IMG/VR virus record: IMGVR_UViG_3300048091_000427
From: a virus
DNA length: 64,000 bases
Reading direction: 5' to 3' (one strand)
The notes below the pieces were generated by a model. That model saw only the letters and a program-made list of their open reading frames with translations, did not search any database and was not told the DNA's origin. Below, one piece after another: positions 1,320-61,109 of this stretch; the first letter of the stretch is position 1; each line of letters starts with the position of its first letter. The position numbers and the translations under genes were made by a program.

Positions 1320-2315
1320 TCAGGACTTGGTGCCGGTCAACGCCTTGTCCAGCTTCTGGTAAGTCATCTTGTGCAGGGCCATTTGAGCCTCTACCTCTGA
1401 CATTTCCGTTAGCTTTGTCGCCGATGGAATGTCGCCCATCAACGCCGCCCGCTTGAGCCAGTAGTAGGCCTCGAATTGCGCCGATTGATCGTAACCCGCC
1501 AGGCTGCCCTGGGCCTTGCCGGCCAGCAGCAGTTGTGCAAATTGGTACATGCTTTCTGGATCGCCTTTCATGGCCTGTCGCTGCAGCGCGTAGGAACGCA
1601 TTAAGTCGGCTGAACGTTGCTCATCCGCCTTCTTGCTGATCCCGCCACCTTTAACAAAGCCTTGCTCGCTGGCCAGAGCGATCAATCGCTTGCCCTCGTC
1701 GTTCCTCCCGGCACGGGCTAGCAATCGACCCAGGTAGAAAGACGATTCACCGTCCCCAAGGTCAGAGGCTTTCTGCAGGTATGAGAGGGCTTTCTGTGGA
1801 TTGTCCAGGTGCGGCTGGCTCAGGTTGCCATACAGGATGCCCAATTGGCGCATGGCTTTGATGCTGTTGGCGGCGGAACCTTCCAGCAAAGCGATGGCTA
1901 AGGCTCGCTGATCCGGGCCTTCCTTCAGCTTCAGAAGACCGAGTACACGCATGGCTTCCGCATTCCCCAATTCAGCGGCCTGGTTCAACAAGACCACAGC
2001 AGCCTGTTTATTCTCGTCGCTGGGGGTACCCTCCATGAGCTGGCGGGCTTTCTCGTAAAGTTCATCGCTCGACAAGGCCGAGTCTACGGAGAGACCTTCC
2101 TCCACATTGAAGGGATCTGGCGTTGTGGTATTCACCTGGATAGGCGTCTCGACCTGAGCTGGAGCGACCCACGGGGTTTCCGGCTGGACAGGCTCACGAA
2201 TTACCGGCGTGGGCCCAACCGGTGCCACAGGCTGCTGAGGCTGGCTTTGACAACCCGCCAGCATCAGCAAAGCGATGTAGCCACAGCGTAAACGAAAGCG
2301 GTTATTAAACATCAC
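1320..2315 (-). CDS. Sel1/TPR-like repeat lipoprotein
   Basis: Lipoprotein signal (LLMLAGC) then Pro-rich linker and repeated A-x-x-Y/W-L-x-x-A-A-x-x-G Sel1-like repeats. Confidence 0.65.
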   Translation of the reverse strand: MMFNNRFRLRCGYIALLMLAGCQSQPQQPVAPVGPTPVIREPVQPETPWVAPAQVETPIQVNTTTPDPFNVEEGLSVDSALSSDELYEKARQLMEGTPSDENKQAAVVLLNQAAELGNAEAMRVLGLLKLKEGPDQRALAIALLEGSAANSIKAMRQLGILYGNLSQPHLDNPQKALSYLQKASDLGDGESSFYLGRLLARAGRNDEGKRLIALASEQGFVKGGGISKKADEQRSADLMRSYALQRQAMKGDPESMYQFAQLLLAGKAQGSLAGYDQSAQFEAYYWLKRAALMGDIPSATKLTEMSEVEAQMALHKMTYQKLDKALTGTKS

Positions 2316-2321
2316 CTAGCC

Positions 2322-3086
2322 CTATTGCGTGAGTTTCTGTTTGGCTTCTTTGTTACCAGCATCAGCGGCGGCTTGTAACCAGCGGCGCGATTGTTTTTTA
2401 TCGCCGGCCTTCAGCAAGCGTTCGCTGTAGAGCAGCATGGCCTTGGGGTGTTTGTTACGGACGGCAAAATCCAGCACCGTGTCCGCTTCTTCAGTGCGTT
2501 GATCCTGGTACAGCAGCTTGGCCAGGTCGTAAGCGGCGTTAACGTCACTTTCGGCGTACAGCAGTGTCAATTTATTGATTTCGTCTTGATGTTGGCTTTT
2601 ACGCAGCCCCGTGACCGATGATTTCGAATTCTTGGCCGGCGCATTCTGCTCTGCCTCCATCGCCAACTCTCGCTCCAAGGACGCCGAGATGTCGTAGGGT
2701 TCAGCTGGGGGCGCTTTGCTTGCAACCGGAGTGCTCTTTACTGCAATCGGGGCAGGGGCTTGAGCAGGGTGCTGGTACGCCGGGGTTTGTGGCGGAACAT
2801 CAACGGTGAAGGTTGAGGTCTGCGCCGGCGCTGCGGTCGGCACGAACACTTCCGCCTGACCTGAATCCTGTGGATCGGCGTCCTGATTCTGCACGATCTG
2901 GGGTGTGACAATGACGTCCTCACGCATGACGACCGTGGGCGCTAGCCGCGAGGTTTGATCGACCACTGGAACTCCCAGGTTGGGTTTGGAAGGATCGAAC
3001 AGGGTGGGTTGGAATTGCACGGGGGCACATCCGGCAGTCAACAGGCTGCCGAGCACCAGGGCTGAAATACGCTGCATGCTAGTCAC
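2322..3086 (-). CDS. lipoprotein with C-terminal Sel1-like repeats
   Basis: Signal LGSLLTAGC lipobox, Pro/Ala-rich linker, C-terminal Sel1-like helices; tandem with preceding lipoprotein; start GTG 3086 or ATG 3077. Confidence 0.5.
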   Translation of the reverse strand: MTSMQRISALVLGSLLTAGCAPVQFQPTLFDPSKPNLGVPVVDQTSRLAPTVVMREDVIVTPQIVQNQDADPQDSGQAEVFVPTAAPAQTSTFTVDVPPQTPAYQHPAQAPAPIAVKSTPVASKAPPAEPYDISASLERELAMEAEQNAPAKNSKSSVTGLRKSQHQDEINKLTLLYAESDVNAAYDLAKLLYQDQRTEEADTVLDFAVRNKHPKAMLLYSERLLKAGDKKQSRRWLQAAADAGNKEAKQKLTQ

Positions 3087-3204
3087 TCACACGAAAACCT
3101 CGATTATCGCAACGCGCCGGGCAATGTCAATCAAGGCCTTGTTCGTTGACCCTGAGAGAGCGGCATCCATACACTTGAGAAAGGATTTATAGAAGGAAAA
3201 CACA

Positions 3205-5007
3205 GTGGCCTCCACCCTCGAAAAGCTGATCAAAGAACAAGTCGACGCCGACAACTTGCCAATGGTCGAGGCTCTGTTGAACTCGATTGTTCCGTTATTA
3301 CCTGAGAAAGAACGGGAAGTACTGGCTGACAGCCAGATGTACGAGGTTTTACTGGAAAGGAAGCCAGCCATCGTCAATCTGTTTTCGCAGCATTTCTCCA
3401 TCACCGATGCAATGGCCGCTGGTTATCTTCTGGATCGCAGTCTCTTCGTGCACAAAGATCGTGACGCATTGCCAATCGCGCTGGACGCGTTGCAAGAAAG
3501 CTTTGGCAATGTGCTGATATCAGCCATTTACCGGGGTGACCTGGCGATGGTGCGAACGCTTCAGGCGAAGTGGCCTGATCGACACATCGAATTGAGTTAC
3601 GACGGTACGAAAGGACACTTGCTGGCAGATGGTCAAAAGGTAAAGCATGAATTTGAAGCCATGCAAAACATGGATGGCGTCCCGGTGTTCCGCGAGCTTA
3701 TGGAAACCTTGCTAAAGATCGTGCAGATAAACGGGATAGATCAGGAGCAATTTCTTTACGACTTTTGTGACAGCGTCAATTTGGATGAGGCCGATGATCT
3801 GACTGAAATTGTTCCTTTTGCCGGTCAGTATCCGTCGATAGCCGCAGGCCAGGTCGAACATCCAGAGCTTATGCTGGCGTTCGCTGAAGCCCAGGAAACA
3901 GTGTTGTTGAAGGCTATGCACAGCCGATTGTTTTGCTGGGTCAAGACCGAGGACGTCGCCGACTTGCCGTTAGGCGTGGCGTATTCCCCAGTGATGAAGG
4001 CCTCGTGCTACGGAGAGCCCTTCGACATCGGGATTCTCTCGACCCCTGCTGCATTTACCCAGCCCTTGCAGTTCACGAAAACGAATGAAGACCGAAAACC
4101 CGAGCCGATCATGGATCAATGGCCTGATATCGAGTTGGGCATCGAGGTAGGTGGGTTGGAACCGTCCAATGCGGTGATTTATGACGACAAGATCCGCCAA
4201 AAAACCCTGCTCGACAGCCATTTCCTAGGCTTGAATCACCGATCAGGGTACACCCTGATGTCGATGGACATCGAGGTATTGAAATCACTTGATATCGGCA
4301 AGGTAGATCCAGAAGCGCTTGTTAAGGCGCGGGAATACGCACAAGGCTTTTACTGCTCGCAACTTCTAAGCCCAAGGTTCCACTCGGGTATGAGCAAAAC
4401 CGGTCGGTTCCGGGAGGGCTGCAAGGAAATGAAGCTGTACAACTTCTTCGATTTTTCGGCTAAGAGTCAGGACAAAGACGCCATTTTTGATAGCTTCAGT
4501 CCGGTTTTTTGGTACAACATTTTCCATGGCTTTTCGGCAGGACTGGGTGCGGAAGGGATTCTAGAGGCGCGTGATCGTTTTGCTTGGACAAACGCGGACA
4601 CTCGTAGAGGCTTCAGCCTCGATGCAGGGAAGATTCACAAACTGTTCGATGCTGGTTATGTGTTTGCGGAATACGGTCGTGGAGTAAAGACGTCATACGG
4701 GGTGTCGTCACCAAGTGAGTGCGAAGTGCTAAACCAGGAAGTCATCTCAATGGGTGGCTGGCCAAGCACCGATCCTCGACCCAATGATGTTGAAGAAGCT
4801 GTAAAAATGGGTATCCGCAAGAAGGATCGTTTGTATGAGATCTACATTCGTACTCATGGGCCAGAGGCGGCTATCGAAGCTAGCAAAACCAGGCCTCAGT
4901 ATGAGTACATCCTGAAGATTTTCACCCAGGATGAAATAAGGCCATACGCCCACAAGCTCCCGATGAAGCAACTCGGCGACGTTTTCTCGCGAGATATGGG
5001 TCTTTAA
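3205..5007 (+). CDS. hypothetical protein (600 aa) ending FSRDMGL; member of C-terminal FSxDLGL family
   Basis: GTG start with GAAGGAAAA RBS; no known domain recognised; extreme C-terminus ...DVFSRDMGL. Confidence 0.55.
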   Translation: MASTLEKLIKEQVDADNLPMVEALLNSIVPLLPEKEREVLADSQMYEVLLERKPAIVNLFSQHFSITDAMAAGYLLDRSLFVHKDRDALPIALDALQESFGNVLISAIYRGDLAMVRTLQAKWPDRHIELSYDGTKGHLLADGQKVKHEFEAMQNMDGVPVFRELMETLLKIVQINGIDQEQFLYDFCDSVNLDEADDLTEIVPFAGQYPSIAAGQVEHPELMLAFAEAQETVLLKAMHSRLFCWVKTEDVADLPLGVAYSPVMKASCYGEPFDIGILSTPAAFTQPLQFTKTNEDRKPEPIMDQWPDIELGIEVGGLEPSNAVIYDDKIRQKTLLDSHFLGLNHRSGYTLMSMDIEVLKSLDIGKVDPEALVKAREYAQGFYCSQLLSPRFHSGMSKTGRFREGCKEMKLYNFFDFSAKSQDKDAIFDSFSPVFWYNIFHGFSAGLGAEGILEARDRFAWTNADTRRGFSLDAGKIHKLFDAGYVFAEYGRGVKTSYGVSSPSECEVLNQEVISMGGWPSTDPRPNDVEEAVKMGIRKKDRLYEIYIRTHGPEAAIEASKTRPQYEYILKIFTQDEIRPYAHKLPMKQLGDVFSRDMGL

Positions 5008-11392: not shown

Positions 11393-11791
11393 CTAAACGC
11401 GTTGCATGCCCTTCAGAAAACGTTCAGGCGCCTTACCCCAGAACTGTTTCGTGCGCAGGTCGCGGTACAACACCAATACAGGGTGTTTCCCATCGGCCAT
11501 GCCCTCGTTGGCGAGCCCTATGCAGTAATAGTCATTACCGTTTTCGTGGTGCCAGGCGGTATCGGGTTCGATGGGGCGGTGCTCGTCGATCCGGGGTGGC
11601 GAAATGGCTGGGTCGGTGACCACATCCGTCGCAGGATCGACAGCCAGCAGGGCGCCTGTTTGGCGGTGCTGGAGGACAAGGAGTAGTGGATAGGCCGAAC
11701 GCGACGCGGCGTCGGCCTCTTCATTGATCAGCCCGAGCGTGAAGTAACGTTCGGGACACAGCGACTTAGCGTTCGTTTGAGACATCAGCAT
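11393..11791 (-). CDS. hypothetical protein (~133 aa)
   Basis: C-terminal part of 229-aa ORF in frame from MLMSQTNAK; overlaps stop of next gene by 26 nt. Confidence 0.35.
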   Translation of the reverse strand: MLMSQTNAKSLCPERYFTLGLINEEADAASRSAYPLLLVLQHRQTGALLAVDPATDVVTDPAISPPRIDEHRPIEPDTAWHHENGNDYYCIGLANEGMADGKHPVLVLYRDLRTKQFWGKAPERFLKGMQRV

Positions 11792-12173
11792 CGGCCTGTC
11801 TGCGTTGTTCGCGACGAATGTCGGCGCCCAGGGAGCTGTTGAAGTCGGCGGCGAGCTGGTTTGCGACGGCCACGAAGTTGGCGTCCTTGCTGCCGGCCAT
11901 GAAGCCTTCACGCTTAGCGACTTTGCGCACGTGCGGTACCAGGAACTCGGAGAGCTTGATTTCCGGGTAGCGGTTGTCGGCGATGATCTTGGAAACGGCG
12001 GCGTGCACCGGCTGGTCGTTGAGGAATTCGTCGTTGGCGAATTCGTAAACGCAGTCGATTTCATCCAGAGCGTCGGAGTCACCGCGCATAACGATGACTT
12101 CCAGGTTGTTTCGAGTGGTTCTCATCGGTTTCATGGACATTCCCCTGAAGTAAGTGATGACCGTTTCATTCAT
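11766..12173 (-). CDS. hypothetical protein (135 aa)
   Basis: ORF with plausible coding composition, no motif. Confidence 0.45.
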   Translation of the reverse strand: MNETVITYFRGMSMKPMRTTRNNLEVIVMRGDSDALDEIDCVYEFANDEFLNDQPVHAAVSKIIADNRYPEIKLSEFLVPHVRKVAKREGFMAGSKDANFVAVANQLAADFNSSLGADIRREQRRQADADVSNER

Positions 12174-12225: not shown

Positions 12226-13239
12226 CTAACGTTTAAGGCCTCTGGTCAACCGCTCAGGCTTGTTCCCGTTGTCATAGTTGATCAACTTCTTGACCACCAG
12301 AACCCGCTGCTCATCCATCGTACCAAACTCGCACTCCATCACCGGAATGCCGTCGACCCCGGCAGAAATGACGTCAGGAAAGTCGGTTTTAAGGACGTCC
12401 CCTACCTTCAGATTCATGAACTGTTCGACGGTGAGACCAATGTCGAGCAGTTTCGCCTGGATCTCCACGGAGGTTTCCTTAAGCTCCATGGCCATAAGCT
12501 CTTTCCAGAGGCGCTCTTCCTCGGGGTTGCTCTCGGTCAGCGGCCCGCTGAGCTTGCCGTGTACGGGCTCAACCATGAGGTAGGGAAAGGCAATATTGAA
12601 GTAGGTATCCAGCACGCCCTGAGACTCCAGGCGGAAGGTGGTGTTCACCACGACTTCGTTTGATGAGCTGGTGATGTTGGCAAAGCGGGGCATCATCTCG
12701 GAGCGAACCACACCGATTTCAAGCGGGTAAAGGTCTTTCCAGGCTTCTTGGTAGCTGTTGATGGCGTGATTAAGCAGGCGGCTGATCACGAGATGTTCGG
12801 TGGGCGTGAAATCGCGACCCTCGGTCTTCATGATTTGCTTGCCTTCGCCACCGAAGAGGGTTTCAACCGCCCAGAAGATCAAGGCAGCTGGGAATACGAT
12901 CAACCCATTTCCTCGTAGCGGCTTCATCGCCACGATGTTGAGGTTCGTTGGCGCCGGCATCTTTTGAGAAAATTCGCTGTAGCTTTGGTAATCGACCGAG
13001 ACGACGCTCACGTCAGCTGTGCGACGCAACAAAAGGAACATTGCGGCCCTGAAACTTCGGGCGAAGCGCTCGTTGATGATCTCAAGCGCGTGTAAGTTGT
13101 CGGTGACAACCCGGTGCTGAGTGGCGGCGTTGTAGGGCCTGACACCACCACTATCTGGAGCCGCTTTGGCTTCAGCCTTTGGGCTGTCACCGCCCATGAA
13201 TAGGGCGTCGATCTCGTCCTGTGAGAGCATATTTGTCAT
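12226..13239 (-). CDS. fliM: flagellar motor switch protein FliM homologue (orphan paralogue)
   Basis: N-terminal LSQDEIDALF CheY-binding peptide, LEIINERFAR, MKPLRG, FGGEG, EGRDFTPTE middle (CheC-like) domain and C-terminal FliN/SpoA-like domain; no other flagellar genes nearby. Confidence 0.8.
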   Translation of the reverse strand: MTNMLSQDEIDALFMGGDSPKAEAKAAPDSGGVRPYNAATQHRVVTDNLHALEIINERFARSFRAAMFLLLRRTADVSVVSVDYQSYSEFSQKMPAPTNLNIVAMKPLRGNGLIVFPAALIFWAVETLFGGEGKQIMKTEGRDFTPTEHLVISRLLNHAINSYQEAWKDLYPLEIGVVRSEMMPRFANITSSSNEVVVNTTFRLESQGVLDTYFNIAFPYLMVEPVHGKLSGPLTESNPEEERLWKELMAMELKETSVEIQAKLLDIGLTVEQFMNLKVGDVLKTDFPDVISAGVDGIPVMECEFGTMDEQRVLVVKKLINYDNGNKPERLTRGLKR

Positions 13240-13459
13240 CTTGTTGCACCACCGATAAGGTCAATGTTCCTGTTGGATGCCTGGGCAACCCTCGACAGAC
13301 GCCAGGCAGCCTGAAAACACTCATGTCTTCAAAGGCGCCTATGGATAGCGAGTAGTTACGACAAGCTCCGTAGATCTTCAGTCGGCCACTTTATCGTAAA
13401 GCTTGCGGTGCAGCGACTGTTTTTACATTGTAAGGGCGCCCGGTTGGGCGCCCATCCGA

Positions 13460-14272
13460 CTAGACGCTGAAGGTACTGTATTGCGGATTGAGGTCGGGGC
13501 GACGGTTTAATAATTGCGGGGCTGTTTTGGCTTTGAAGCCAGGCGTCAAACACTGACCCTCGGTGTTCTGATCCAGCGCCGCGAGAGCGACAACCACCTT
13601 GAAGGCCACCCATTGAATCGACAATTCGCGGTCGTCGAGTTCAAGCGCGTTTTCAGTTGGCAAACCCACGATTTCTCGAAATTCGTCGAGCGACTGCGAT
13701 TGCAGGATGGCTGGAAAGTTGTCCTCAACGATCAGCGCTCGTACATAACCACGGTCGATGTCCCGGTAGCAGATACTCACGCAGCGCGCATTATCGCTGG
13801 CTTCATCGGTGATAATGCCAAGGGGCCGCGTCAGGTTGACGTAGTCATAGAAGGGCGCCAGGGAGTAATGCAAGGCCTTGGCATATGGCATGAGTGTCAC
13901 AAGGAATCCAGGCATCTCAACGCCTTCGAACGAATAGCGCTTGGGGGCTGCTACCGTAAAGCTTTCATGGGGGAGAGCAAACCTGCCGGTGGGGATTGAA
14001 ATATCACCCTTGAGCAAGGTATTCAGCGTCGCCGCGTTTTCAGGCACCAGGATATGACTGCCTTGGCGCCGCCAGAAATACTCCTCCGCCATGATTTTGA
14101 AGTCCATGGTTTTCACGAACTCTGGGATCATTTCGAAGGTCTTGGTCAAAACCTCCTTGGTGGACATGCTCTTTGCGTTTTTATCATCGCTGTGTTTCTT
14201 GTACTCATCCACGAGAAAGTCAGTCATTCTCGGGTAGAGGGTGTATTTGGCCTGTTCGTGTTTGGTGGCCAT
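13460..14272 (-). CDS. hypothetical protein (270 aa)
   Basis: Long ORF downstream of FliM-like gene. Confidence 0.45.
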   Translation of the reverse strand: MATKHEQAKYTLYPRMTDFLVDEYKKHSDDKNAKSMSTKEVLTKTFEMIPEFVKTMDFKIMAEEYFWRRQGSHILVPENAATLNTLLKGDISIPTGRFALPHESFTVAAPKRYSFEGVEMPGFLVTLMPYAKALHYSLAPFYDYVNLTRPLGIITDEASDNARCVSICYRDIDRGYVRALIVEDNFPAILQSQSLDEFREIVGLPTENALELDDRELSIQWVAFKVVVALAALDQNTEGQCLTPGFKAKTAPQLLNRRPDLNPQYSTFSV

Positions 14273-25905: not shown

Positions 25906-26299
25906 GGGGCCGATTAGGATTCGACGCCGGTAACAAAACTTTAGGTGCGTGCCGAGTTGGTAACAGAACTCGTAAATCCACTGTTGCAACTTTCTATAGT
26001 TGCCAATGACAATGCCTTCGAGGGCGCTCGTCTCGCTGCCTAACCGCAGCTGACACGCCCTTCTGGTTACTTCGGTACCAGCGATCACTAGGGGATGCCT
26101 GTAAACCCGAAGTGATTGTCATGCAGAACAGGATCGCCACCCGAGTACGTTGCGGACAACGGGGCTAAAACTTACGTAACTCGTCCAAAGCACCCTGCCA
26201 ATCGGGCGGCTGCGGATTAACTCAGTAGATATGGCTACGCATGTAGTACCGACAGCGGAGTACTGGCGGACGGGGGTTCAAATCCCCCCGGCTCCACCA
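25906..26299 (+). ncRNA. ssrA: tmRNA (transfer-messenger RNA, SsrA)
   Basis: 5' GGGGCCGATTAGGATTCGACG acceptor/TLD, tag reading frame GCC AAT GAC AAT GCC TTC GAG GGC GCT CGT CTC GCT GCC TAA (ANDNAFEGARLAA), 3' GGACGGGGGTTCAAATCCCCCCGGCTCCACCA. Confidence 0.9.
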
Positions 26300-26374: not shown

Positions 26375-26848
26375 TTGATGATGAGCAAGGACAAGCAGAA
26401 TACGCTAATCGCTCAGAACCGTAAGGCACGTCACGACTACTTCATCGAAGACTCCGTTGAAGCTGGCGTGGCGCTGCTCGGCTGGGAAGTAAAAAGTTTG
26501 CGGGCAGGCAAGGGTCAATTGGTTGATTGCTACGTGGTCTTCAAGGACAACGAAGCCTTTTTGCTGGGTAGTCATATCCAGCCATTGATCAGTGCCGGTA
26601 CCCATGTGGAAACCGATCCTGAGCGCACCCGGAAATTGCTGTTGAACCGTCGTGAACTGGATCGCCTGAAAGAAGCCTGCGACCAGAAGGGTTTCACCTG
26701 TGTCGCCTTGTCACTTCAATGGAAAGCGCACATGGTGAAATGCACCATCGGCCTGGCCAAGGGTAAGAAAAACCACGACAAACGTGACACCGAAAAAGCC
26801 AGGGATGCCCAGCGGCAGATCCAGCAAGCGACAAAATCTTCCCGTTGA
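26375..26848 (+). CDS. smpB: SsrA-binding protein SmpB
   Basis: [10 protein letters not shown]...GWEVKSLR...LLGSHI..ELDRLK signature of SmpB. Confidence 0.85.
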
Positions 26849-32246: not shown

Positions 32247-32639
32247 TTATTGCATGCCGAGACGGGTGAAGATGGCGTTAAGTTTTTCCTCCAGCACGGC
32301 AGCGGTGAAGGGCTTGACCACGTAACCGCTCACGCCGGCCTGGGCGGCTTCAATGATCTGCTCGCGCTTCGCTTCAGCCGTCACGAGCAAAACAGGTAGA
32401 TCTTTTAACCCTTCTGTAGCGCGTACCGCCTTCAGAAGTTCTAACCCAGTCATTACAGGCATGTTCCAGTCGGTTACCAGAAAGTCGAACTTGCCGGCCT
32501 TCAGTTTGGCGAGGGCCTCGCTACCGTCCTCAGCTTCTTCGATATTGTTGAAGCCGATGTCTCGCAGGAGAGATCGAACGATTCGGCGCATGGTAGAAAA
32601 GTCATCGACCACGAGAAAACGCATGTTCTTATCTACCAT
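32247..32639 (-). CDS. cheY: chemotaxis response regulator CheY homologue (stand-alone)
   Basis: Near-complete identity of motifs with E. coli CheY: [42 protein letters not shown]. Confidence 0.85.
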
Positions 32640-32740
32640 GAACCGCCCCAACTTGCTGATAATTAGAATCCGCTCAATGTATGATAATTTTATCCGCGTT
32701 TCCAGCCGCTTTATCCTTGCAGCGACGGTTGGAGATGTTT

Positions 32741-32757
32741 TTGTCAATTGTTGACAA
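32741..32757. promoter_or_regulatory. perfect 7-3-7 palindrome TTGTCAATTGTTGACAA in cheY / divergent-gene intergenic region
   Basis: Inverted repeat seen directly; overlaps -35-like TTGACA elements for both divergent genes. Confidence 0.4.
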
Positions 32758-32777
32758 ACAGTCAACGGAGTTAGTGC

Positions 32778-33254
32778 GTGGAACCCTTATCCAAATCCGA
32801 CGTAAGTGCGGTCTACCCACCGCGTTACGAGCTTAATCAAGAAACGTTCTCTATCGCGCAGGGTCTGATTCGTGACCTCTGGAATGAGCGCCGCCTGGAA
32901 CATGGCCTGCCACCGACGGATGATCGCTCAAGCAGCTGCAAATTTGCCTCATTGATCGCCAGGGAGCTCTTTGGCGGGCGCCTTGCAGGAAATGAGATGC
33001 ACGTTTTTGTGCTGAGAGATGGGGCAGTGCTCGATCTAAATGAGGAGCAGACGGATGTCCTGCTCTTGGCGGAGCAGGCTCATCATGAGATACCTAAGTG
33101 CATTCAGCACCGCGATTACCGGGCATCACTCGGCACTTGCATGCCCCGTGTGAGGCATTGGATTAAGGTGGCGGAGGAGCGCATGCCGGCGACAGCGCGA
33201 TTAGATCGCGCCCTGGTAGTGGGGCTTGATGAGTGCGAAGGCCTAATTATCTGA
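32778..33254 (+). CDS. hypothetical protein, possible Cys-His-Asp hydrolase
   Basis: Conserved-looking SSSCKFASL ... NEMHVFVL ... D arrangement; speculative. Confidence 0.35.
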
Positions 33255-40292: not shown

Positions 40293-41141
40293 TTACGGAG
40301 CGTAAGGCAGGGCGCGTTTGTGAGCGGTTCTGGCGTATGCGTCGATGATCACCTTGGCGACTTCATCAGAGACAGGCCTGCCGAGCAGGAAGTTGTCGAT
40401 GTCATCGTAGGTGCAGCCGTAAGCCAATTCATCTGGCTTTCCTGGGGCGAGATCTTCAAGGTCGGCGGTCGGGGTCTTCAGCACCAGGTCAGTTGGTGCA
40501 CCCAGCGCCAGCGCGATCTGACGAACCTGACCTTTGACCAAACCTGACAGTGGAGTCAGGTCTGCCGCGCCGTCGCCGAACTTGGTAAAGAAACCAAATA
40601 CAGCCTCGCATGCATGATCCGTGCCAACAACCAGACATCCTTTGTCGCCAGCAATTGCGTATTGGGCGATCATGCGGGCACGTGCTTTGACGTTACCTTT
40701 CACGAAGTCGATCTGGTGCTCGTCCCCGGCTTGTTGGCCGCTCAGGGCACCCATCATGGCATCGACGGACTGGCCGATATCGACGGTCAGGATTTCGTCC
40801 GGTTTGATGAAGCGCAGGGCCGCTTGAGCATCTTCTTCGTCGCGTTGAACGTAGTAGGGCAGGCGTACGGCGTAGAACTTGGCGTCGTAGCCTTCGGCAC
40901 GCAGCTGTTCAACCGCTTCCTGGCACATCTTGCCTGCCGTGGTGGAGTCAACGCCGCCGCTGATACCCAGTACCAGGCCTTTGGTGTTACTGGCCCGTAC
41001 GTAGTCTTTCAGGAAGGCCACGCGGGTTTCGAGTTCTGCTACCGCGTCGCTGGCTCGATGAACCCACTGTTTGACGTTGAGTTCGCCGGCAATGCGAGCG
41101 GCGATGTCGGTTGTGATGTCGGTTTTCAGGATGTCGTTCAT
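40293..41141 (-). CDS. nadE: NH3-dependent NAD+ synthetase
   Basis: SGGVDS PP-loop, full-length similarity pattern to NadE. Confidence 0.85.
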   Translation of the reverse strand: MNDILKTDITTDIAARIAGELNVKQWVHRASDAVAELETRVAFLKDYVRASNTKGLVLGISGGVDSTTAGKMCQEAVEQLRAEGYDAKFYAVRLPYYVQRDEEDAQAALRFIKPDEILTVDIGQSVDAMMGALSGQQAGDEHQIDFVKGNVKARARMIAQYAIAGDKGCLVVGTDHACEAVFGFFTKFGDGAADLTPLSGLVKGQVRQIALALGAPTDLVLKTPTADLEDLAPGKPDELAYGCTYDDIDNFLLGRPVSDEVAKVIIDAYARTAHKRALPYAP

Positions 41142-42418
41142 TACTGGGCCACCTTGTCGTTGAATTCTTTGATGCCGAACACACTCGCGGCGTATTGCAG
41201 GAAGCTCGGGTCTTCACAGACGTTCTTCACCGGGTCGTCGGAGAACTTCACAACCGCCGCACCGTTAACACGCACCAGTTTCATCACGATGCTCAAAGGC
41301 TCAACGCCTTCGACGTCGCAGGCCAGGCTGGTACCGATGCCGAAGCCTACTCGAGCTCGGCCACCGACGTGACGGTGGATGGCCAGCGCTTTCTCGAAGT
41401 TCAGGCTGTCGGAGAACATCAGTTCCTTGCCCTTCGGATCGATGCGCAGATCTTCGTAACGCTTGATGCATTTGTCAGCCCAGGCGAATGGGCAGCCGGA
41501 ATCATGGCGAAGGCCGTCATACAACTTCGCGAAATACAGATCGAAGTCCTTGTTCAGGAAGTAGTCGCTCGAGATGACATCGGTCAGGGCAATACCCAGG
41601 CGACCACGATATTCATGAACCCAGTTTTCCAGCGCGGCCTTTTCGCTATTGACCAGGCGGACATCGGTCTGCTGGTGAAGCATCAACCATTCGTGAGCCA
41701 TCGTGCCGATCAACGGCAGGTCGAACTCGTAGGCCAGCATCGGGTTACTGGTGCCGACAAATTGGCCGGGGAAGTCACGGCGCATGATATCGACCACTTC
41801 ACGCTGTACCTCTTGCGACAGACGACGGCGCGTCGAAAAGTCCGAGACGCGGAAGTCGGCAAGCTCTTCTTTCGTGGCGTTCTTTTCCAGCCATTCGAAT
41901 TTCTGGTAGAGGCGGTCACGCACTTGGGACAGTTGCACATCCGGGTACTTGGTGCGGTTGCGCAGCTCGCTTACGATGGCCAAAACGGCGATTTCGAAGA
42001 GCATGGTGTGCACCATCGGCCCACGAACGCGGATCGAAATCTGACCGTCTACCTCGGACACATGCACGTAACGCAGGTTAAAGCGAAACAGCGCCAGGAA
42101 GCGGCGGAAGTCGTCGGTCAGGTACTCGCGGAAGCGCTGATCAAAGACAAACCGCAGTTCGTCATCACGCACTTGCAGATTCGCCAGGTGTTCGAGTTGC
42201 TCACGAACTTCAGGGATCAAGTGCGATAAGTTTTCCTTCGACCTGCAAATAAAGGCGTATTCGACGTCAACGTTAGCATGCTGGTGGTGCACTGCCTGCA
42301 GCATCGTTAGCTTATAAAAGTCGGTATCCAGCACGCTGGAAAGGAGCGGCTGATTCCATTTGTAGATGCTTTCCGTCTTCCCGATGACCGGGGTATTCCA
42401 TGCGCGATTGCTTTCCAT
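41141..42418 (-). CDS. pncB: nicotinate phosphoribosyltransferase
   Basis: DFYKLTM N-terminal signature, about 400 aa PncB architecture. Confidence 0.85.
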   Translation of the reverse strand: MESNRAWNTPVIGKTESIYKWNQPLLSSVLDTDFYKLTMLQAVHHQHANVDVEYAFICRSKENLSHLIPEVREQLEHLANLQVRDDELRFVFDQRFREYLTDDFRRFLALFRFNLRYVHVSEVDGQISIRVRGPMVHTMLFEIAVLAIVSELRNRTKYPDVQLSQVRDRLYQKFEWLEKNATKEELADFRVSDFSTRRRLSQEVQREVVDIMRRDFPGQFVGTSNPMLAYEFDLPLIGTMAHEWLMLHQQTDVRLVNSEKAALENWVHEYRGRLGIALTDVISSDYFLNKDFDLYFAKLYDGLRHDSGCPFAWADKCIKRYEDLRIDPKGKELMFSDSLNFEKALAIHRHVGGRARVGFGIGTSLACDVEGVEPLSIVMKLVRVNGAAVVKFSDDPVKNVCEDPSFLQYAASVFGIKEFNDKVAQ

Positions 42419-42419
42419 C

Positions 42420-43073
42420 TCAATTCCCCTCTTTAGCGAATTTTGTCAATTCATCTTGATTGTGAGCGATCACCGCACCGGCAGCGACCATTTCGAGCAA
42501 TGCTTCTAGTGCGCCTTCGGCACTGATTGCTCGGCAGGCCGGCAAGTGGAGCACGACGATGAAGTCTGCGGCCAGCAGTTGCAGGACGGTGGTTTTGACG
42601 CAGTAGTCCAGAGCCAGACCGCCCACCAGGACTTTTTCGATGCCATTGCAGCGCAGGACTTCGATGGCGCCGGTGGTCAGCTTGTTGTGCAGATCGTGGT
42701 AGCAGGCGCCGTAGGGGTGCAGGTCGGTCGATACACCCTTGTAGACCATGTAGCCGTAGTCGGTCTCGGCGGGCAGCGTGTCGAGGAGCTCGTAGCCCAA
42801 GGTACCGGGTACGCAGTGCACAGGCCAGAACAGGTCAGCATTTGGCAGGCCGGTAGGCTGGGCGATCTTTTCGCCGGTCTCGTCGATCCATGGGGCTTGC
42901 GGAGAGTGAGCGTCTTTGCTGCCGACGCGAAAACCAGCCAGGGAAGCCATGAAGTTCAGCTCAGGGGTAATCTGGTCACCGCCAACGACAGGCAGTTCAT
43001 TTGGGCAGATCGGGGTGAACCCCTTTTGGGCGTCTACGTCAAAGCTTGCGATTTTGTTCTTGGGGAAGCTCAT
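42420..43073 (-). CDS. pncA: nicotinamidase / isochorismatase-family hydrolase
   Basis: Isochorismatase fold with D...K...C triad region; position in pncA-pncB-nadE operon. Confidence 0.7.
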   Translation of the reverse strand: MSFPKNKIASFDVDAQKGFTPICPNELPVVGGDQITPELNFMASLAGFRVGSKDAHSPQAPWIDETGEKIAQPTGLPNADLFWPVHCVPGTLGYELLDTLPAETDYGYMVYKGVSTDLHPYGACYHDLHNKLTTGAIEVLRCNGIEKVLVGGLALDYCVKTTVLQLLAADFIVVLHLPACRAISAEGALEALLEMVAAGAVIAHNQDELTKFAKEGN

Positions 43074-43309
43074 GTGAGGTGCTCCTTGTTTGCCGATGAT
43101 TAGATATTACGCCACACGTCATAAGTCGTCAACAACCCGAAATGAAAATTTCTAAAAATCTTCCATCAATCGAAAAACAGTCGCTCATTTGCCTATAAAT
43201 AGTGGTACTGGCTGAAATTATTGCTGAGCCATAATTTCATATAATTGACCTGTTGCGATTGACTAGATACGACGTGACACGTATTATGTTGAAAAAGAAG
43301 GAGCAAAAC

Positions 43310-43882
43310 ATGAGCAAGATCCCATTGGCCGTATACGGCGGCGCATTCAACCCACCTCACCCAGGGCACGCCCAAGTGATGAAGGGTCTGCTTGAGAAGG
43401 CTGAAAAAGTGCTGGTGGTACCCTCTTATGCTCACCCGTTTGGCAAGCACATGGTGGCTTTCGAAACGCGGGTAGGGTGGCTGACCAAGATCGTGACCCA
43501 GCTGCAAGATGAGCGCATTCAGGTAGATGCCTGTGAGGAAGATCTAGCCGCCATCAAGACCCCGATCTTCAGCATCGATCTGTTGCGGTTCATCGCCGAC
43601 CGGTTCGGCCTCGATAGCAAGTCGGTGGCGTTGGTGATGGGCGCGGACAACGCAAAGGTTTTCCCAACCTTCTTTGGCTACCAGGCCATCGTGGATGAGT
43701 TCTCGGTGATCACCATGCCTGAGGTGTACCAGATCCACAGCACGATGCTGCGCAGTGCCCTGGCTGATACGGGTGAAATTCCGCAGGACTGGGTTGCCCC
43801 CGGCCTGACGCAACATGATTACCAGGTGTACAGCCAAGACCCGGCTGGCCAAGCCAACTTGAATTCACGCAAAATCGCCTGA
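43310..43882 (+). CDS. nicotinamide/nicotinate-nucleotide adenylyltransferase-like cytidylyltransferase
   Basis: GGAFNPPHPGH (H/T)xGH nucleotidyltransferase motif. Confidence 0.65.
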   Translation: MSKIPLAVYGGAFNPPHPGHAQVMKGLLEKAEKVLVVPSYAHPFGKHMVAFETRVGWLTKIVTQLQDERIQVDACEEDLAAIKTPIFSIDLLRFIADRFGLDSKSVALVMGADNAKVFPTFFGYQAIVDEFSVITMPEVYQIHSTMLRSALADTGEIPQDWVAPGLTQHDYQVYSQDPAGQANLNSRKIA

Positions 43883-43914
43883 ATCACCAATTTATCTTTC
43901 AAGGGGACTCCAGG

Positions 43915-44625
43915 ATGACCACTCAACAAAGACCTTACCTCCACTCCGTCGACATCGGTGTGCTGCGCTTCAACCAGGCGAGTGAGGTGATCGAGGTCAT
44001 GCTGCAGAAGCGCCTCGACCCTGATCAACCTTACTTTGGTCAGTGGGCGCTGCCCGGCATCGTGATCAATGGTGACATGATCGACCAGGACATCAACGCC
44101 GCACTGGCCCGCCTACTGGCGTCGCCCAAGGTCGGCATCCCGGTAAAGTACACCGAACAAGTGGGAACCGAAGGCAACGGCGTGCGTGATCCGCGCTGCT
44201 GGTCGAGCACCACCGTCTACCTTGGTCTCGTGGATGACGCCATTGCCCTGGAAGGGGACAAGCAGTGGGTGCCGCTGGCCGGCGTTCTGTCCTCCGAGAT
44301 CCTGCTCGCATTTGACCACAACCTCTTGGCTGGCATGATTTATGAGCGGCTTGCGTCGAAGTGCCTCTACAGCAGCCTGGGCCTGCAACTGCTGCCACAG
44401 GAATTTACCATCACCGGCGCGATCAGCGTGTTCGCCTCGATCCTCAATTATCCGGTGGCCCGGACGAGCATGGTGCAACGCATCAACAAGATGACGGAAG
44501 CCGGCCTGGTGCTGAAGACTGACCGCAAAAACCAACCGCTGATGGGCCGGGCCCAAACCATCTACGAAAACCTTCAACCAGAAAAAGTCTTCTTTTTCGA
44601 CCGTACTCTCTCTGCCTCTGAATAA
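43915..44625 (+). CDS. nrtR: NrtR-like Nudix-related transcriptional regulator
   Basis: Degenerate Nudix N-terminal domain plus C-terminal wHTH; genomic context next to NAD salvage genes. Confidence 0.6.
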   Translation: MTTQQRPYLHSVDIGVLRFNQASEVIEVMLQKRLDPDQPYFGQWALPGIVINGDMIDQDINAALARLLASPKVGIPVKYTEQVGTEGNGVRDPRCWSSTTVYLGLVDDAIALEGDKQWVPLAGVLSSEILLAFDHNLLAGMIYERLASKCLYSSLGLQLLPQEFTITGAISVFASILNYPVARTSMVQRINKMTEAGLVLKTDRKNQPLMGRAQTIYENLQPEKVFFFDRTLSASE

Positions 44626-44635
44626 GGAAATCGAC

Positions 44636-45127
44636 ATGAACGCACCCGTCAAACCGTTTGAACTCCTGCATGAAACCCCGTATTTCAACGTGATCAAGCG
44701 TGGGAAGTATTACCTCGTGAGTGAAGAGTACGAGGTTAACGCTGCGGTGATCCTCGCCAGAACCACTGATGGCAAGTACCTGATGGTCAACCACTACCGT
44801 GGCGCTATTGATCAGGATTCCCTGGAACTGCCGCGTGGTGGCCGCAAGCCGAACGAAACTCTGCTGGAAACTGCCCAGCGTGAGTTGAAGGAGGAGACTG
44901 GTTACGTGTCTGAGGCCTGGTCGTTCCTCGGGAAGATCCACACCAACACCTCGATCATCGTCAGTGCGGTCGAAATCTACCTGGCGCTCGACGCGGTACA
45001 AGTGACCACCGTCACTGACGGAGAAACCAAAGGTAACCTGCTGTACACCGAGGACGAATTTAACGTCCTGATTCGCACCGGCAAGATCACTGACGCGCAC
45101 ACCCTGTCGGCCTGGGCAATGCGATAA
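44636..45127 (+). CDS. Nudix hydrolase (ADP-ribose pyrophosphatase-like)
   Basis: Nudix box GGRKPNETLLETAQRELKEETGY. Confidence 0.7.
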   Translation: MNAPVKPFELLHETPYFNVIKRGKYYLVSEEYEVNAAVILARTTDGKYLMVNHYRGAIDQDSLELPRGGRKPNETLLETAQRELKEETGYVSEAWSFLGKIHTNTSIIVSAVEIYLALDAVQVTTVTDGETKGNLLYTEDEFNVLIRTGKITDAHTLSAWAMR

Positions 45128-51269: not shown

Positions 51270-52715
51270 TCAAAGGCCAAGGTCTTTACTGAAAGAGTCC
51301 GCCCGGAATCTCATCGACCGGGTGAGTTTGCACTTATTCAGAAAGGCGTCTTTAAGATCCAAATCAAGTGCCTTCCTAAATCCCTCACCATCGACTGATT
51401 TGAACAATATGTTGATGGTCTTGTCGTGAGCTCCTGCAATTTCGCCCGGCTTGTCCTTGGTAACCAGTTGTTTTGCGTGCTCCAGCAAAATTTCACGGGC
51501 GCCTTCAAAACTATTGGCCGCAAGTTTAATTGACGCGTCGAAATTCAGTGAAGCTACGCATTTTTTAAGCTCTGTGTTGAAGCCATCATGATCCGTAATG
51601 GTTGGGGTGATTCCCCGCTGGTAGTATCTGATGAGGTTCATCATGTGTTTGGGGTCACTGGTCAGTATGTCTACCCCTGCGGTCAGAGCCACCTCAAACA
51701 AACGCTCCTTCAAGTGGGGTTCATCTTTTCGTGGACTCGATTGAGCGATGGCAGTAAGCAAGCGTAGTGGGGTGAAGTCCGTACCACGTCCCATGATGAT
51801 TTCTGTCGGTGTTCTTTCGAGTGGCGTCATCTCATGCAAGCTCGAGCAAATTGCACGCAGGTTGGTCGTATCTCGAAGGTACGTGATCTCTTCTGGTACT
51901 CCATTTTTGAGCGCCCGTAAAAATCGGCAAAAGACCAGGGCCGGATCAAAATCACGAACGCCTCTTTTTGCTTCGGCGTTCATGGCGTAGTCGAGGATCG
52001 GATTATGGAGCCAGGGCTTTTTCTCGAGACGTGAGATAATCGCGAGACACTTGGTGATTGACTGATCGTAGGGCAATTCAGAGTCCACATCGCGTGAAAG
52101 CGAAACGCCGCCACTTTCAAGAAAGTGATCCATGGCTTCCACCATTTTATCCTTGTTGCTATGGCCCACGAACTGGTTCAAGTACATGTCCTTGAACATC
52201 ATTGCTACGTACTGGGGTTCGGAGATATAGCGGTGACCGCCCATGCTCCTGAGAACATTCATCGTTTCGACAAAATCCTCTTTACTGACCAGGGGCTCCT
52301 TATCGGATTTTGGGAATTTCCGACCAAATCCGAGAATGGCCGATCCCAATGGCTTGAGGGGATTTGGAAAGCTTACCTTACTGTAAAGGATGGTCTGCGG
52401 GCTGGAATCGAACAGGGCAGGGTCGTCAAGGTAGCAATCGTAGCGTTCGAAAATCGCCAGGGGCACGCCATGATCGCGGAAAATGGCTAAGGCCTCATGA
52501 TTACCCTCCATGGCGCATTCGCAGATGTGCTGTTCCACGTCCCTGCGCAAGGATTGTGGGGTCATGTATCTCGGACTTGCACGGTCAGGGGACATAGGCG
52601 CCGGCAAGTAGCCTGCAGCTTCTGGCATCTTCTCCAGGTGCTCGCAGTAGATCCTGGCGTTGCTCACGGCTCTCTCGGACGCTGTAAGCCATGTACGGCG
52701 GTGATCGAATGTCAT
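51270..52715 (-). CDS. hypothetical protein (481 aa) ending SFSKDLGL; FSxDLGL family, tandem paralogue B
   Basis: Shares EKMPEAxGYLPAP, HEALxIxRxHGVxLxIFERYD, KxGVRDFDPxxVF, TNLRAI, C-terminal RADSFSKDLGL with upstream paralogue. Confidence 0.55.
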   Translation of the reverse strand: MTFDHRRTWLTASERAVSNARIYCEHLEKMPEAAGYLPAPMSPDRASPRYMTPQSLRRDVEQHICECAMEGNHEALAIFRDHGVPLAIFERYDCYLDDPALFDSSPQTILYSKVSFPNPLKPLGSAILGFGRKFPKSDKEPLVSKEDFVETMNVLRSMGGHRYISEPQYVAMMFKDMYLNQFVGHSNKDKMVEAMDHFLESGGVSLSRDVDSELPYDQSITKCLAIISRLEKKPWLHNPILDYAMNAEAKRGVRDFDPALVFCRFLRALKNGVPEEITYLRDTTNLRAICSSLHEMTPLERTPTEIIMGRGTDFTPLRLLTAIAQSSPRKDEPHLKERLFEVALTAGVDILTSDPKHMMNLIRYYQRGITPTITDHDGFNTELKKCVASLNFDASIKLAANSFEGAREILLEHAKQLVTKDKPGEIAGAHDKTINILFKSVDGEGFRKALDLDLKDAFLNKCKLTRSMRFRADSFSKDLGL

Positions 52716-61008: not shown

Positions 61009-61049
61009 ATGAATCTCCGATGAATCTGGTGTAGGTGTGAATGTAATTA

Positions 61050-61064
61050 TTGTATTCAATTGAC
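61050..61064. promoter_or_regulatory. TTGACAGGCTGTCAA palindrome in recA promoter region
   Basis: 7-1-7 inverted repeat containing -35-like TTGACA; no canonical CTGT-N8-ACAG LexA box found. Confidence 0.35.
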
Positions 61065-61109
61065 AGGCTGTCAACAAGATTGATGGTAAATTGATATGAT
61101 ATTTTTACA

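Follow-up and report, generated by a model that had tools for sequence, protein, structure and literature searches.

Evidence for a second FliM, with a CheY docking peptide and encoded apart from the flagellar operon, on a Pseudomonas megaplasmid

The middle domain of the switch protein FliM contacts FliG in canonical flagellar motors, the role of its GGXG motif in FliG binding being well established, and the cytoplasmic ring (C-ring) is normally treated as a homo-oligomer of one FliM. A FliM2 without the CheY-binding N-terminus has reportedly been described in Shewanella putrefaciens CN-32 by Bubendorfer et al. The lateral (secondary) motors of gamma-proteobacteria are non-chemotactic, and their C-ring has lost the chemotactic ability (Ferreira et al. 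2021, PMC8042155). Arrangements with several FliM copies and two flagellar systems are known, whereas a split between a docking-competent copy and a docking-less in-operon copy is not known. On the side of the replicon, the megaplasmids of the pMPPla107 family are about 1 Mb in size, with ~90% of their genes of unknown function and many housekeeping paralogues including RecA, and the transfer of complex machines is discussed for them as a question of the 'complexity hypothesis' (PMC6482414). The present analysis concerns a fliM gene located at positions 12226-13239 of a stretch of 64 kb (record IMGVR_UViG_3300048091_000427; the window hereafter). This gene, referred to as the orphan fliM, was compared with its homologues, in particular with a second FliM (FliM-2) encoded in the flagellar operon of related plasmids. 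The results support its assignment as a second FliM copy on a flagellated megaplasmid.

Sequence, fold and ancestry of the orphan FliM

The open reading frame (ORF) at 12226-13239 encodes a genuine full-length FliM. The protein reached 279.5 bits with the NCBIfam equivalog model TIGR01397 (fliM_switch; cut-off 219.6), covering model positions 2-319 of 320. Its middle domain matched the Pfam family FliM (PF02154) over model positions 1-192 of 192 (E 1e-54), and its C-terminal domain matched FliMN_C (PF01052; E 1e-12, 48.2 bits, cut-off 23.8). The N-terminus, MTNMLSQDEIDALF, contains the canonical docking peptide for phosphorylated CheY (CheY-P), LSQxEIDALL, here as LSQDEIDALF. In a phmmer search, residues 3-321 were aligned with the Salmonella FliM of C-ring structures solved by cryo-electron microscopy (E 1.5e-88). 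An AlphaFold 2 (AF2) model, built from a 66-sequence alignment (mean predicted local distance difference test score 76), contained a short helix at residues 7-14, followed by a low-confidence linker at residues 15-34 that is likely disordered. Using Foldseek, the model was superimposed on Salmonella C-ring FliM with E values of 1e-33 to 1e-35 and on crystal structures of FliM_M with template modelling scores of 0.87-0.95 and root-mean-square deviations of 1.4-2.2 Å, and the predicted fold of the SpoA C-domain matched FliN and HrcQb. A reading made from the letters alone (the sequence-only reading) had described a docking peptide, a CheC-like middle domain and a FliN/SpoA-like C-domain, an architecture that was confirmed by Pfam, TIGR01397, phmmer and AF2/Foldseek.

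In the 66-sequence alignment, F129, G130 and G131 were invariant and G133 nearly so. Among the 89 universal FliM positions (conserved across enteric-, secondary- and polar-type proteins), 66 were kept by the orphan clade, with mostly conservative changes at the others; by region, the kept positions amounted to 8/10 in the N-terminal part, 51/68 in the middle domain, 7/10 in the C-terminal domain and 1/1 in the inter-domain linker. At diagnostic positions, the orphan never departed from canonical FliM. The score with the FliY equivalog NF005995 was 23 bits, far under the cut-off of 218, so that the protein is a FliM and no phosphatase. Conservation of sequence and fold suggests that the interfaces for FliG, FliN and CheY-P are intact, and a role in C-ring assembly and switching is predicted.

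Four lineages were compared, namely the window, a Logan contig, plasmid pPL1 of Pseudomonas silesiensis G3 and the Pseudomonas sp. PLMAX lineage. All four share a common gene order, which comprises the genes for an FtsH-like protein, ORFan-270, FliM, ORFan-122, ORFan-130, ORFan-94 and, further on, a Glu_synthase-domain protein. Across the lineages, the orphan FliM was 89, 81 and 59% identical, compared with 90/77/55% for the FtsH-like protein and 95/85/71% for the Glu_synthase-domain protein. The divergence of FliM thus tracks that of its neighbours, which indicates that the gene diverged together with the backbone. Comparison with the orthologues gave ratios of non-synonymous to synonymous substitution rates (dN/dS, omega; Nei-Gojobori) of 0.10-0.13 at dS values of 0.67-0.94. 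Synonymous sites were saturated in the comparison with the 59% lineage, with MLSQ(D/E)EIDAL and GG(E/D)G still present, and the docking peptide was kept in every lineage of the orphan clade, down to 59% identity, in the form MLSQ(D/E)(D/E)IDAL, as was GG(E/D)G. The reading frame was intact in at least 6 clusters formed at 90% identity (~36 distinct sequences).

The orphan clade is 50-55% identical to the FliM proteins of Halomonadaceae and to 350-aa 'Pseudomonas' FliM proteins, the latter located in enteric-style clusters (fliE/fliF-R/flagellin/flgK), and 45-47% identical to E. coli FliM. Its identity to the polar-type Pseudomonas FliM (322-323 aa) is ~33%, which rules out an origin as a duplicate of the host's own fliM. 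The polar type is >90% conserved across Pseudomonas, and its genus-wide conservation leads us to expect a polar fliM on the host chromosome as well. By these identities, the orphan FliM classifies as a xenologue of the enteric/Halomonas type.

The megaplasmid, its flagellar cluster and FliM-2

The window matched JGI and Logan contigs from metagenomes (soil) at 100% identity and showed 97.7% nucleotide identity to the 'plasmid unnamed1' contig of Pseudomonas serbica IT-P366 (1,059,468 bp), which encodes the exact orphan FliM protein. It was therefore assigned to a sibling plasmid; an identity with the IT-P366 contig itself was ruled out by the value of 97.7%, and all statements on IT-P366 describe a sibling replicon. 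Positions 2231-4358, which overlap a 600-aa ORFan (3205-5007), were only ~81% identical to the IT-P366 plasmid (97.7% in the rest of the compared region) and represent a local divergence hot-spot or a replacement. The closed plasmid pPL1 (NZ_CP143488.1; 1,168,067 bp, GC content 53.3%) matched the entire window in collinear order, with a nucleotide identity of ~65-90% (for the most part 74-87%). The genome of IT-P366 (7.60 Mb) is reported to include a megaplasmid with a type IV secretion system (T4SS) of the Dot/Icm kind (MPF_I), whereas that of the conspecific IT-194P (6.94 Mb) is without a plasmid (PMC12817638); the megaplasmid is probably self-transmissible.

As a ~1-Mb Pseudomonas plasmid with ORFans and with recA, smpB/tmRNA, xseAB and ftsH-like genes, the replicon agrees in size and content with the pMPPla107 family. 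Homologues of the 270-aa ORFan encoded next to the orphan fliM, the one ORFan family compared, were found at 26-34% identity on pMPPla107, pBASL58 and two further large Pseudomonas plasmids, including that of FeN3W. In pMPPla107, pBASL58 and the FeN3W plasmid, there is no fliM gene beside the shared ORFan, and the local gene order differs. PLSDB yielded a FliM match on at most one further Pseudomonas plasmid. The window plasmid is, by these comparisons, probably a distant relative of the pMPPla107 family. Direct membership, with the motility phenotype of pMPPla107 being due to this gene, was rejected, given the distant relation and the absence of fliM at the compared loci. A phage origin was likewise rejected, as there was no nucleotide match in phage records and as the sole sizeable phage protein match, 'Microcystis phage MaAM05', lies among murJ, glyS and fabI, in what appears to be bacterial DNA. 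In that record (MW495066.1), the region at 96.6-121.6 kb around the annotated fliM contains murJ, glyS, fabI, pomA, mtgA and similar genes and appears to be part of a bacterial chromosome that was submitted as a phage genome.

A full flagellar regulon was found at ~500-558 kb of pPL1 when the whole plasmid was scanned (PLSDB gave two FliM places). It comprises flgNMA, flgB-L, flagellin genes, fliD, fliS, fliE-R, the FlhD and FlhC genes, motAB, flhB, flhA, an FlhF-like gene, fliA and a gene for an Aer-like methyl-accepting chemotaxis protein (MCP); this full FlhDC/FliA-type set was verified on pPL1 only. The IT-P366 plasmid carries fliT-S-D, fliE, fliF-K, fliL, the FliM-2 gene, fliN-R, a flagellin gene and flgK at 1,036-1,057 kb and the orphan fliM at ~434 kb; on a circular contig, the two would be ~450 kb apart. 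Taking both plasmids, the distance between the orphan gene and the flagellar cluster is ~450-500 kb. A canonical fliL-fliM-fliN-OPQR operon is thus present elsewhere on the replicon, as seen directly on the IT-P366 plasmid contig and on pPL1 and indirectly for the window's own replicon. The possibility raised by the sequence-only reading against itself, that this was the only fliM of an organism with scattered flagellar genes, accordingly fails, and a chromosome with scattered flagellar genes was ruled out, since the DNA belongs to a megaplasmid on which a canonical flagellar cluster is present. Its core claim of an extra FliM outside flagellar operons, in an accessory gene block, proved correct.

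FliM-2 comprises 332 aa and shares 40-45% identity with the orphan FliM. Both types were found on the IT-P366 plasmid (1,059,468 bp), on pPL1 (1.168 Mb) and in Pseudomonas sp. PLMAX, where each is located on a 948,989-bp record (the orphan labelled 'plasmid'), and hence together on 3/3 megabase plasmid records checked. Both types were also recorded on a 1,077,129-bp contig, for which records exist of three exact proteins: the CheY of the window, a 334-aa call of the orphan FliM, and FliM-2. All of the FliM-2 lineages (7/7, 64-100% identical) are without LSQxEIDALL and start ~19 variable residues before (I/V)KPYNPATQHR. A longer FliM-2 N-terminus cannot be encoded, because the stop codon of fliL lies 5-6 nt upstream of the FliM-2 start codon, and the alignment with TIGR01397 extended from model position 28 onward only. 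The orphan is the only plasmid FliM that still carries the CheY docking peptide.

Omega values of the individual genes were all determined on one pair of plasmids, those of P. serbica and pPL1. They amounted to 0.13 for the orphan FliM overall (N-terminal docking peptide and linker 0.26, middle domain 0.11 (0.106), C-domain 0.14 (0.137)), 0.21 for FliM-2 overall (N-terminal vestige ~1.3, middle domain 0.14, C-domain 0.27) and 0.10 for the plasmid CheY overall. The vestigial N-terminus of FliM-2 evolves neutrally, and with 0.13 versus 0.21, the off-operon copy is both the more canonical and the more constrained one. In the phylogenetic tree, the orphan and FliM-2 clades each received 100% bootstrap support and were placed, weakly (59%), as sisters within the enteric/Halomonas type. 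The two clades show parallel identity ladders and similar-looking branching orders, which is what two genes of an ancestral plasmid would give.

The window also contains a stand-alone cheY gene, as the sequence-only reading had noted. Its product is a true CheY, with 217 bits in NF007901 (cut-off 189, positions 1-129 of 129), 70.5% identity to E. coli CheY over the full length, retention of D12, D13, D57, T87, Y106 and K109, and a match to CheY entries of the PDB (3e-57). The pPL1 orthologue is 74% identical and found at the collinear position (dN/dS 0.10). Upstream of cheY (32640-32890, minus strand), an operator-like sequence, TTGACTGTTTGTCAACAATTGACAA, with repeated TTGAC/GTCAA half-sites was conserved between the window and pPL1. 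The latter plasmid encodes a CheW homologue (~299.1-299.6 kb), five MCP-like proteins (near 309, 372, 424, 499 and 888 kb) and one CheY, and searches with E. coli queries gave no CheA, CheZ, CheR or CheB. This partial chemotaxis toolkit would have to plug into the host pathway; without CheA and CheZ on the plasmid, any phosphorylation of CheY must come from the host. A further protein of pPL1, WP_338924648.1 (NZ_CP143488.1, 270908-271951, plus strand), combines an ORFan N-terminal part with a C-terminal Pfam FliG_M domain (47 bits) that contains GEHPKVIATIL, an EHPQR-like motif. It forms a singleton cluster without a close relative in JGI metagenomes and was rejected as a conserved partner for that reason.

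Gene neighbourhood and upstream elements

Features of the locus are listed in Table 1. The orphan fliM does not lie in the fliL-fliM-fliN(-OPQR) context that is usual for FliM. Pfam scans of essentially all ORFs ≥120 aa revealed no other flagellar gene in the whole window, and a tblastn search of the 64 kb, in which 37 flagellar proteins and 15 che/mot/flh proteins served as queries, returned only the orphan FliM and one CheY. The earlier statement that flagellar genes are missing within ~12 kb thus holds for the entire window, and its description of the neighbours as hypothetical proteins and an FtsH-like protease was equally borne out. The latter is a paralogue that served as a synteny anchor. 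With omega values of 0.09-0.24, the flanking ORFans are real genes. ORFan-122 and ORFan-130, which are also annotated in public records, are possibly co-transcribed with fliM, as suggested by a 91-nt gap and a shared strand. ORFan-122 contains DSDALDEIDCVYEF, which is faintly like the LSQDEIDALL docking peptide, possibly by coincidence.

Table 1. Positions of the orphan fliM, its parts and associated features in the window
Feature	Position	Strand	Basis or conservation
Orphan fliM coding sequence (337 aa, ATG start), enteric/Halomonas-type full-length FliM	12226..13239	-	ORF, Pfam, TIGR01397, PDB match, fold, dN/dS
CheY-P docking peptide LSQDEIDALF, codons of residues 5-14	13198..13227	-	sequence reading
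CheC-like FliM middle domain, residues 36-230	12550..13134	-	Pfam PF02154
GGEG (residues 130-133), GGXG motif of the FliG-binding loop	12841..12852	-	alignment columns
C-terminal SpoA/FliN-like domain, residues 252-320	12280..12486	-	Pfam PF01052
Conserved upstream block CTTTACGATAAAGTGGCCG, 19 nt, ~145-160 nt before the fliM ATG	13383..13401	-	4/4 lineages
GC-rich hairpin GGGCGCCC-AACC-GGGCGCCC, directly after the stop codon of the upstream ORF	13434..13453	-	conserved in three lineages
Conserved ORFan, 270 aa, directly upstream of fliM	13460..14272	-	no Pfam match; syntenic at 90/76/52% identity; dN/dS 0.09
Two overlapping ORFans directly downstream of fliM	11766-12134 (122 aa), 11393-11785 (130 aa)	-	no Pfam match; syntenic in all lineages; dN/dS 0.12-0.24
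FtsH-like AAA+/M41 protease paralogue, 674 aa	14395..16419	-	Pfam AAA and Peptidase_M41; 90/77/55% identity
Stand-alone cheY, enteric type, 130 aa, 19 kb from the orphan fliM	32247..32639	-	NF007901, E. coli CheY alignment, PDB match

The upstream block CTTTACGATAAAGTGGCCG was conserved in all lineages including the one at 59% identity and had one copy in the window and one in the complete pPL1 sequence, both located before the orphan fliM, which makes it a candidate for a gene-specific promoter or operator. The GC-rich hairpin between this block and the upstream ORF lacks a T-run and for that reason was not called in a terminator scan; it probably marks a boundary between transcription units, with a putative role as a terminator. 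With its own upstream block and the hairpin, the orphan fliM appears to be transcribed as a unit of its own, under a dedicated control element. Class-3 genes of the plasmid (flagellin genes, flgK, fliD, flgM) are preceded by sigma-28-like promoters (TAAAG-N14-15-[G/T]CCGAT...), and no such promoter was detected at the same stringency before the orphan fliM or cheY. A search for a sigma-28, sigma-70 or shared plasmid promoter motif before the orphan fliM was also negative.

Most ORFs of the window have no Pfam family, the exceptions being 'housekeeping'-type paralogues: the FtsH-like protease, the Glu_synthase-domain protein, smpB with tmRNA, xseA, xseB, a nicotinamide adenine dinucleotide (NAD) salvage block, an MscS channel, an AlkB-like oxygenase, Ham1 and a long RecA. 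The gene for tmRNA (25906-26299, plus strand; Rfam 175 bits, tag peptide ANDNAFEGARLAA) adjoins smpB (26375-26848, plus strand), and together they form the plasmid's own trans-translation pair in a region with 84% nucleotide identity to pPL1. The RecA paralogue (59563-61077, minus strand) comprises 504 aa; its RecA/RecA_C domains end near residue 349 and are followed by a tail of ~150 aa without a family match. The NAD-salvage/regulation block (40293-45127) lies amid ORFans and encodes an NAD synthase, NAPRTase, a PncA-like isochorismatase, a cytidylyltransferase-like NMNAT, an NrtR-like winged-helix protein and a NUDIX hydrolase. Two tandem, paralogue-like 481-aa ORFs without a Pfam family are found at 51270-52715 and 52792-54237 (minus strand), the former without an exact match in the public gene index.

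Possible function and comparison with known systems

We tentatively propose, with slightly less than even confidence, that the orphan FliM supplies CheY-P responsiveness to the C-ring of the plasmid-borne motor, with CheY being phosphorylated by the CheA of the host. The orphan would be a functional, separately transcribed paralogue within a dispersed set of motility and chemotaxis genes of the plasmid. Its product would join the C-ring of the plasmid-encoded motor, with or instead of FliM-2, and would there capture CheY-P, derived either from the enteric-type plasmid CheY after phosphorylation by the host CheA (the plasmid being without CheA) or from the host's own CheY-P pool, whereby an otherwise CheY-blind motor would become switchable. 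Expression of the plasmid flagellum, entry of the orphan into its C-ring and binding of CheY-P are inferred. An extended version of the proposal, in which the two jobs of FliM are divided such that FliM-2 builds the C-ring and the distal, independently regulated orphan is dosed in for docking, is possible but doubtful; the orphan, together with the orphan CheY, would then link the motor to the CheA of any host, with tunable responsiveness and a heteromeric C-ring.

The proposal draws on the fact that the docking peptide is present in the orphan and missing from FliM-2, on the co-occurrence and co-divergence of the two, on the precedent of the non-chemotactic lateral motors, on the enteric/Halomonas type that the orphan shares with the plasmid cluster, on constraint that extends beyond the peptide to the whole protein, and on the conservation in pPL1 of the CheY encoded 19 kb away. 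Several points weigh against it. At 40-45% identity between the orphan and FliM-2, lateral FliM-FliM contacts in a mixed ring may be incompatible. The orphan gene lies amid ORFans, ~450-500 kb from the flagellar cluster; it is without the sigma-28-like promoter of class-3 genes, and CTTTACGATAAAGTGGCCG is found nowhere in the cluster, so that co-regulation with the flagellar regulon is not supported. Finally, the sisterhood of the two FliM clades is weak (59%), and long-branch attraction could be involved.

Among the functions listed by the sequence-only reading, service to a second motor emerged as the best explanation and titration of CheY-P as its main rival, whereas an injectisome-like platform was dropped because no type III secretion genes were seen. 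According to this rival, the orphan, either cytoplasmic or in sub-complexes of the FliM-FliN type, would act as a buffer or sink for CheY-P and, with the plasmid CheY draining phosphate from the host CheA, leave less CheY-P for the polar motor and retune swimming and chemotaxis of the host. We consider this unlikely, if far from negligible. Of all features of the orphan, the docking peptide is retained most strikingly, cross-binding is plausible given the similarity between the host-type peptide (LLSQDEIDALL) and that of the orphan (MLSQDEIDALF), the gene is transcriptionally apart from the flagellar regulon with no sigma-28 promoter, and an orphan CheY is encoded nearby, with phosphorylation left to the host in the absence of CheA and CheZ from pPL1. 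A peptide decoy, however, needs no middle and C-terminal domains, yet these evolve at omega 0.11-0.14 and are held more tightly than those of FliM-2; the FliG-binding GGXG motif and most universal FliM positions are kept, and wherever a megabase plasmid record was examined, the orphan was accompanied by FliM-2. After acquisition of pMPPla107, a distant relative, soft-agar motility/chemotaxis was changed by +27% (PMC4105467), but that plasmid is not known to carry fliM, and PLSDB contains no more than one other Pseudomonas plasmid with a FliM match. Constraint on all three modules would be accounted for if the orphan bound FliG and FliN of the host through the GGXG-EHPQR and SpoA interfaces, which are among the most conserved positions and retained by the orphan, and thereby poisoned or modified the chromosomal C-ring. 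Benefits could include a lower cost of motility, surface contact for Dot/Icm-type conjugation or evasion of flagellotropic phages; a Dot/Icm T4SS is reported for the plasmid (PMC12817638), and interference between plasmid and host proteins is known in the megaplasmid family (PMC6482414). Such an action on the host motor is nevertheless improbable, as the orphan is ~33% identical to the polar-type Pseudomonas FliM versus 50-55% to the plasmid-cluster type, and the phylogeny points to FliG and FliN of the plasmid as natural partners.

Recruitment of the FliM scaffold to a non-flagellar role, for instance as a CheY-regulated adaptor acting with the neighbouring ORFans or with FliG_M-domain proteins, would fit the strictly conserved ORFan block, in which the two small downstream ORFs are under purifying selection, the unique upstream element of the gene and the presence on pPL1 of a hypothetical protein with a C-terminal FliG_M domain and an EHPQR-like motif, encoded far from the flagellar genes. 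This prospect appears remote, since no close relative was found of the FliG_M-domain ORF, which forms a singleton, the ORFans are linked to FliM by position only, and the orphan is canonical at every diagnostic FliM position. That the gene is an inert remnant from an ancient duplication or transfer, still undecayed, is hardly credible. It does lie outside operons on an ORFan-rich plasmid that collects paralogues of recA, smpB/tmRNA, xseAB and ftsH, but the frame is intact in at least 6 clusters (~36 distinct sequences), dN/dS is 0.10-0.13 with motifs persisting despite saturated synonymous sites, and synteny and the upstream element are conserved; inertness is effectively refuted by the selection analysis.

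If the proposed contribution of the orphan to the plasmid C-ring is true, a conserved pair of docking-less and docking-competent FliM proteins on one replicon would provide a natural case of a mixed or exchangeable C-ring. The ~1-Mb plasmid carries a whole flagellum together with CheY, CheW and MCPs, yet no CheA, and must interface with host signalling. A motility change upon acquisition of a megaplasmid may have specific genetic causes, and within this sub-family, the orphan fliM is one candidate.

The orphan has the same architecture, length, motifs and fold as the canonical enteric FliM of Salmonella and E. coli (8umd, 8wiw, 9n49); residues 3-321 are 45-47% identical, both have the docking peptide, and the CheY that accompanies the orphan shares 70.5% identity with that of E. 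coli. Unlike the canonical protein, it is encoded outside fliLMNOPQR, on a megaplasmid, coexists with an in-operon FliM and forms a long-branched clade of its own. Its middle domain shares the CheC-like fold of the FliY/CheC-family phosphatases, with 23 bits in the FliY model versus a cut-off of 218. The plasmid resembles the pMPPla107/pBASL58 family in size, host genus, low GC content relative to the host, ~90% genes of unknown function, housekeeping paralogues including RecA, a reported Dot/Icm-type T4SS and a shared ORFan family, and acquisition of pMPPla107 alters motility and chemotaxis. It differs in that the shared ORFan is only 26-34% identical and has no fliM beside it in that family. 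Flagellar genes are not mentioned in two papers on the pMPPla107 family (PMC6482414, PMC4105467). The arrangement with two FliM proteins was observed in the serbica/pPL1/PLMAX sub-family alone. No report was found of a docking-competent orphan FliM beside a docking-less in-operon FliM, and a four-term literature search gave none of a flagellar cluster borne on a Pseudomonas megaplasmid.

The closest named relatives of both plasmid FliM proteins (49-55% identity) belong to the secondary enteric cluster of the Pseudomonas ogarae type, which we take to be the 'second flagellar apparatus' of strain F113. It shares the fliE/fliF-R/flagellin/flgK order with the plasmid cluster but is chromosomal; its in-cluster FliM keeps the docking peptide (LSQDEIDMLL), and no orphan copy is known. 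As in the CheY-blind lateral systems, the flagellar genes of the plasmid form an accessory cluster, and FliM-2, the faster-evolving copy, corresponds to a CheY-blind secondary-system FliM in being encoded in a flagellar operon and missing the docking peptide. The plasmid cluster is, however, of the FlhDC/enteric type, unlike the gamma-lateral one. In the known CheY-blind systems, the secondary motor stays non-chemotactic and each FliM is encoded in its own cluster, whereas here the plasmid retains, away from its cluster, a third FliM that is of the same general type and competent for docking.

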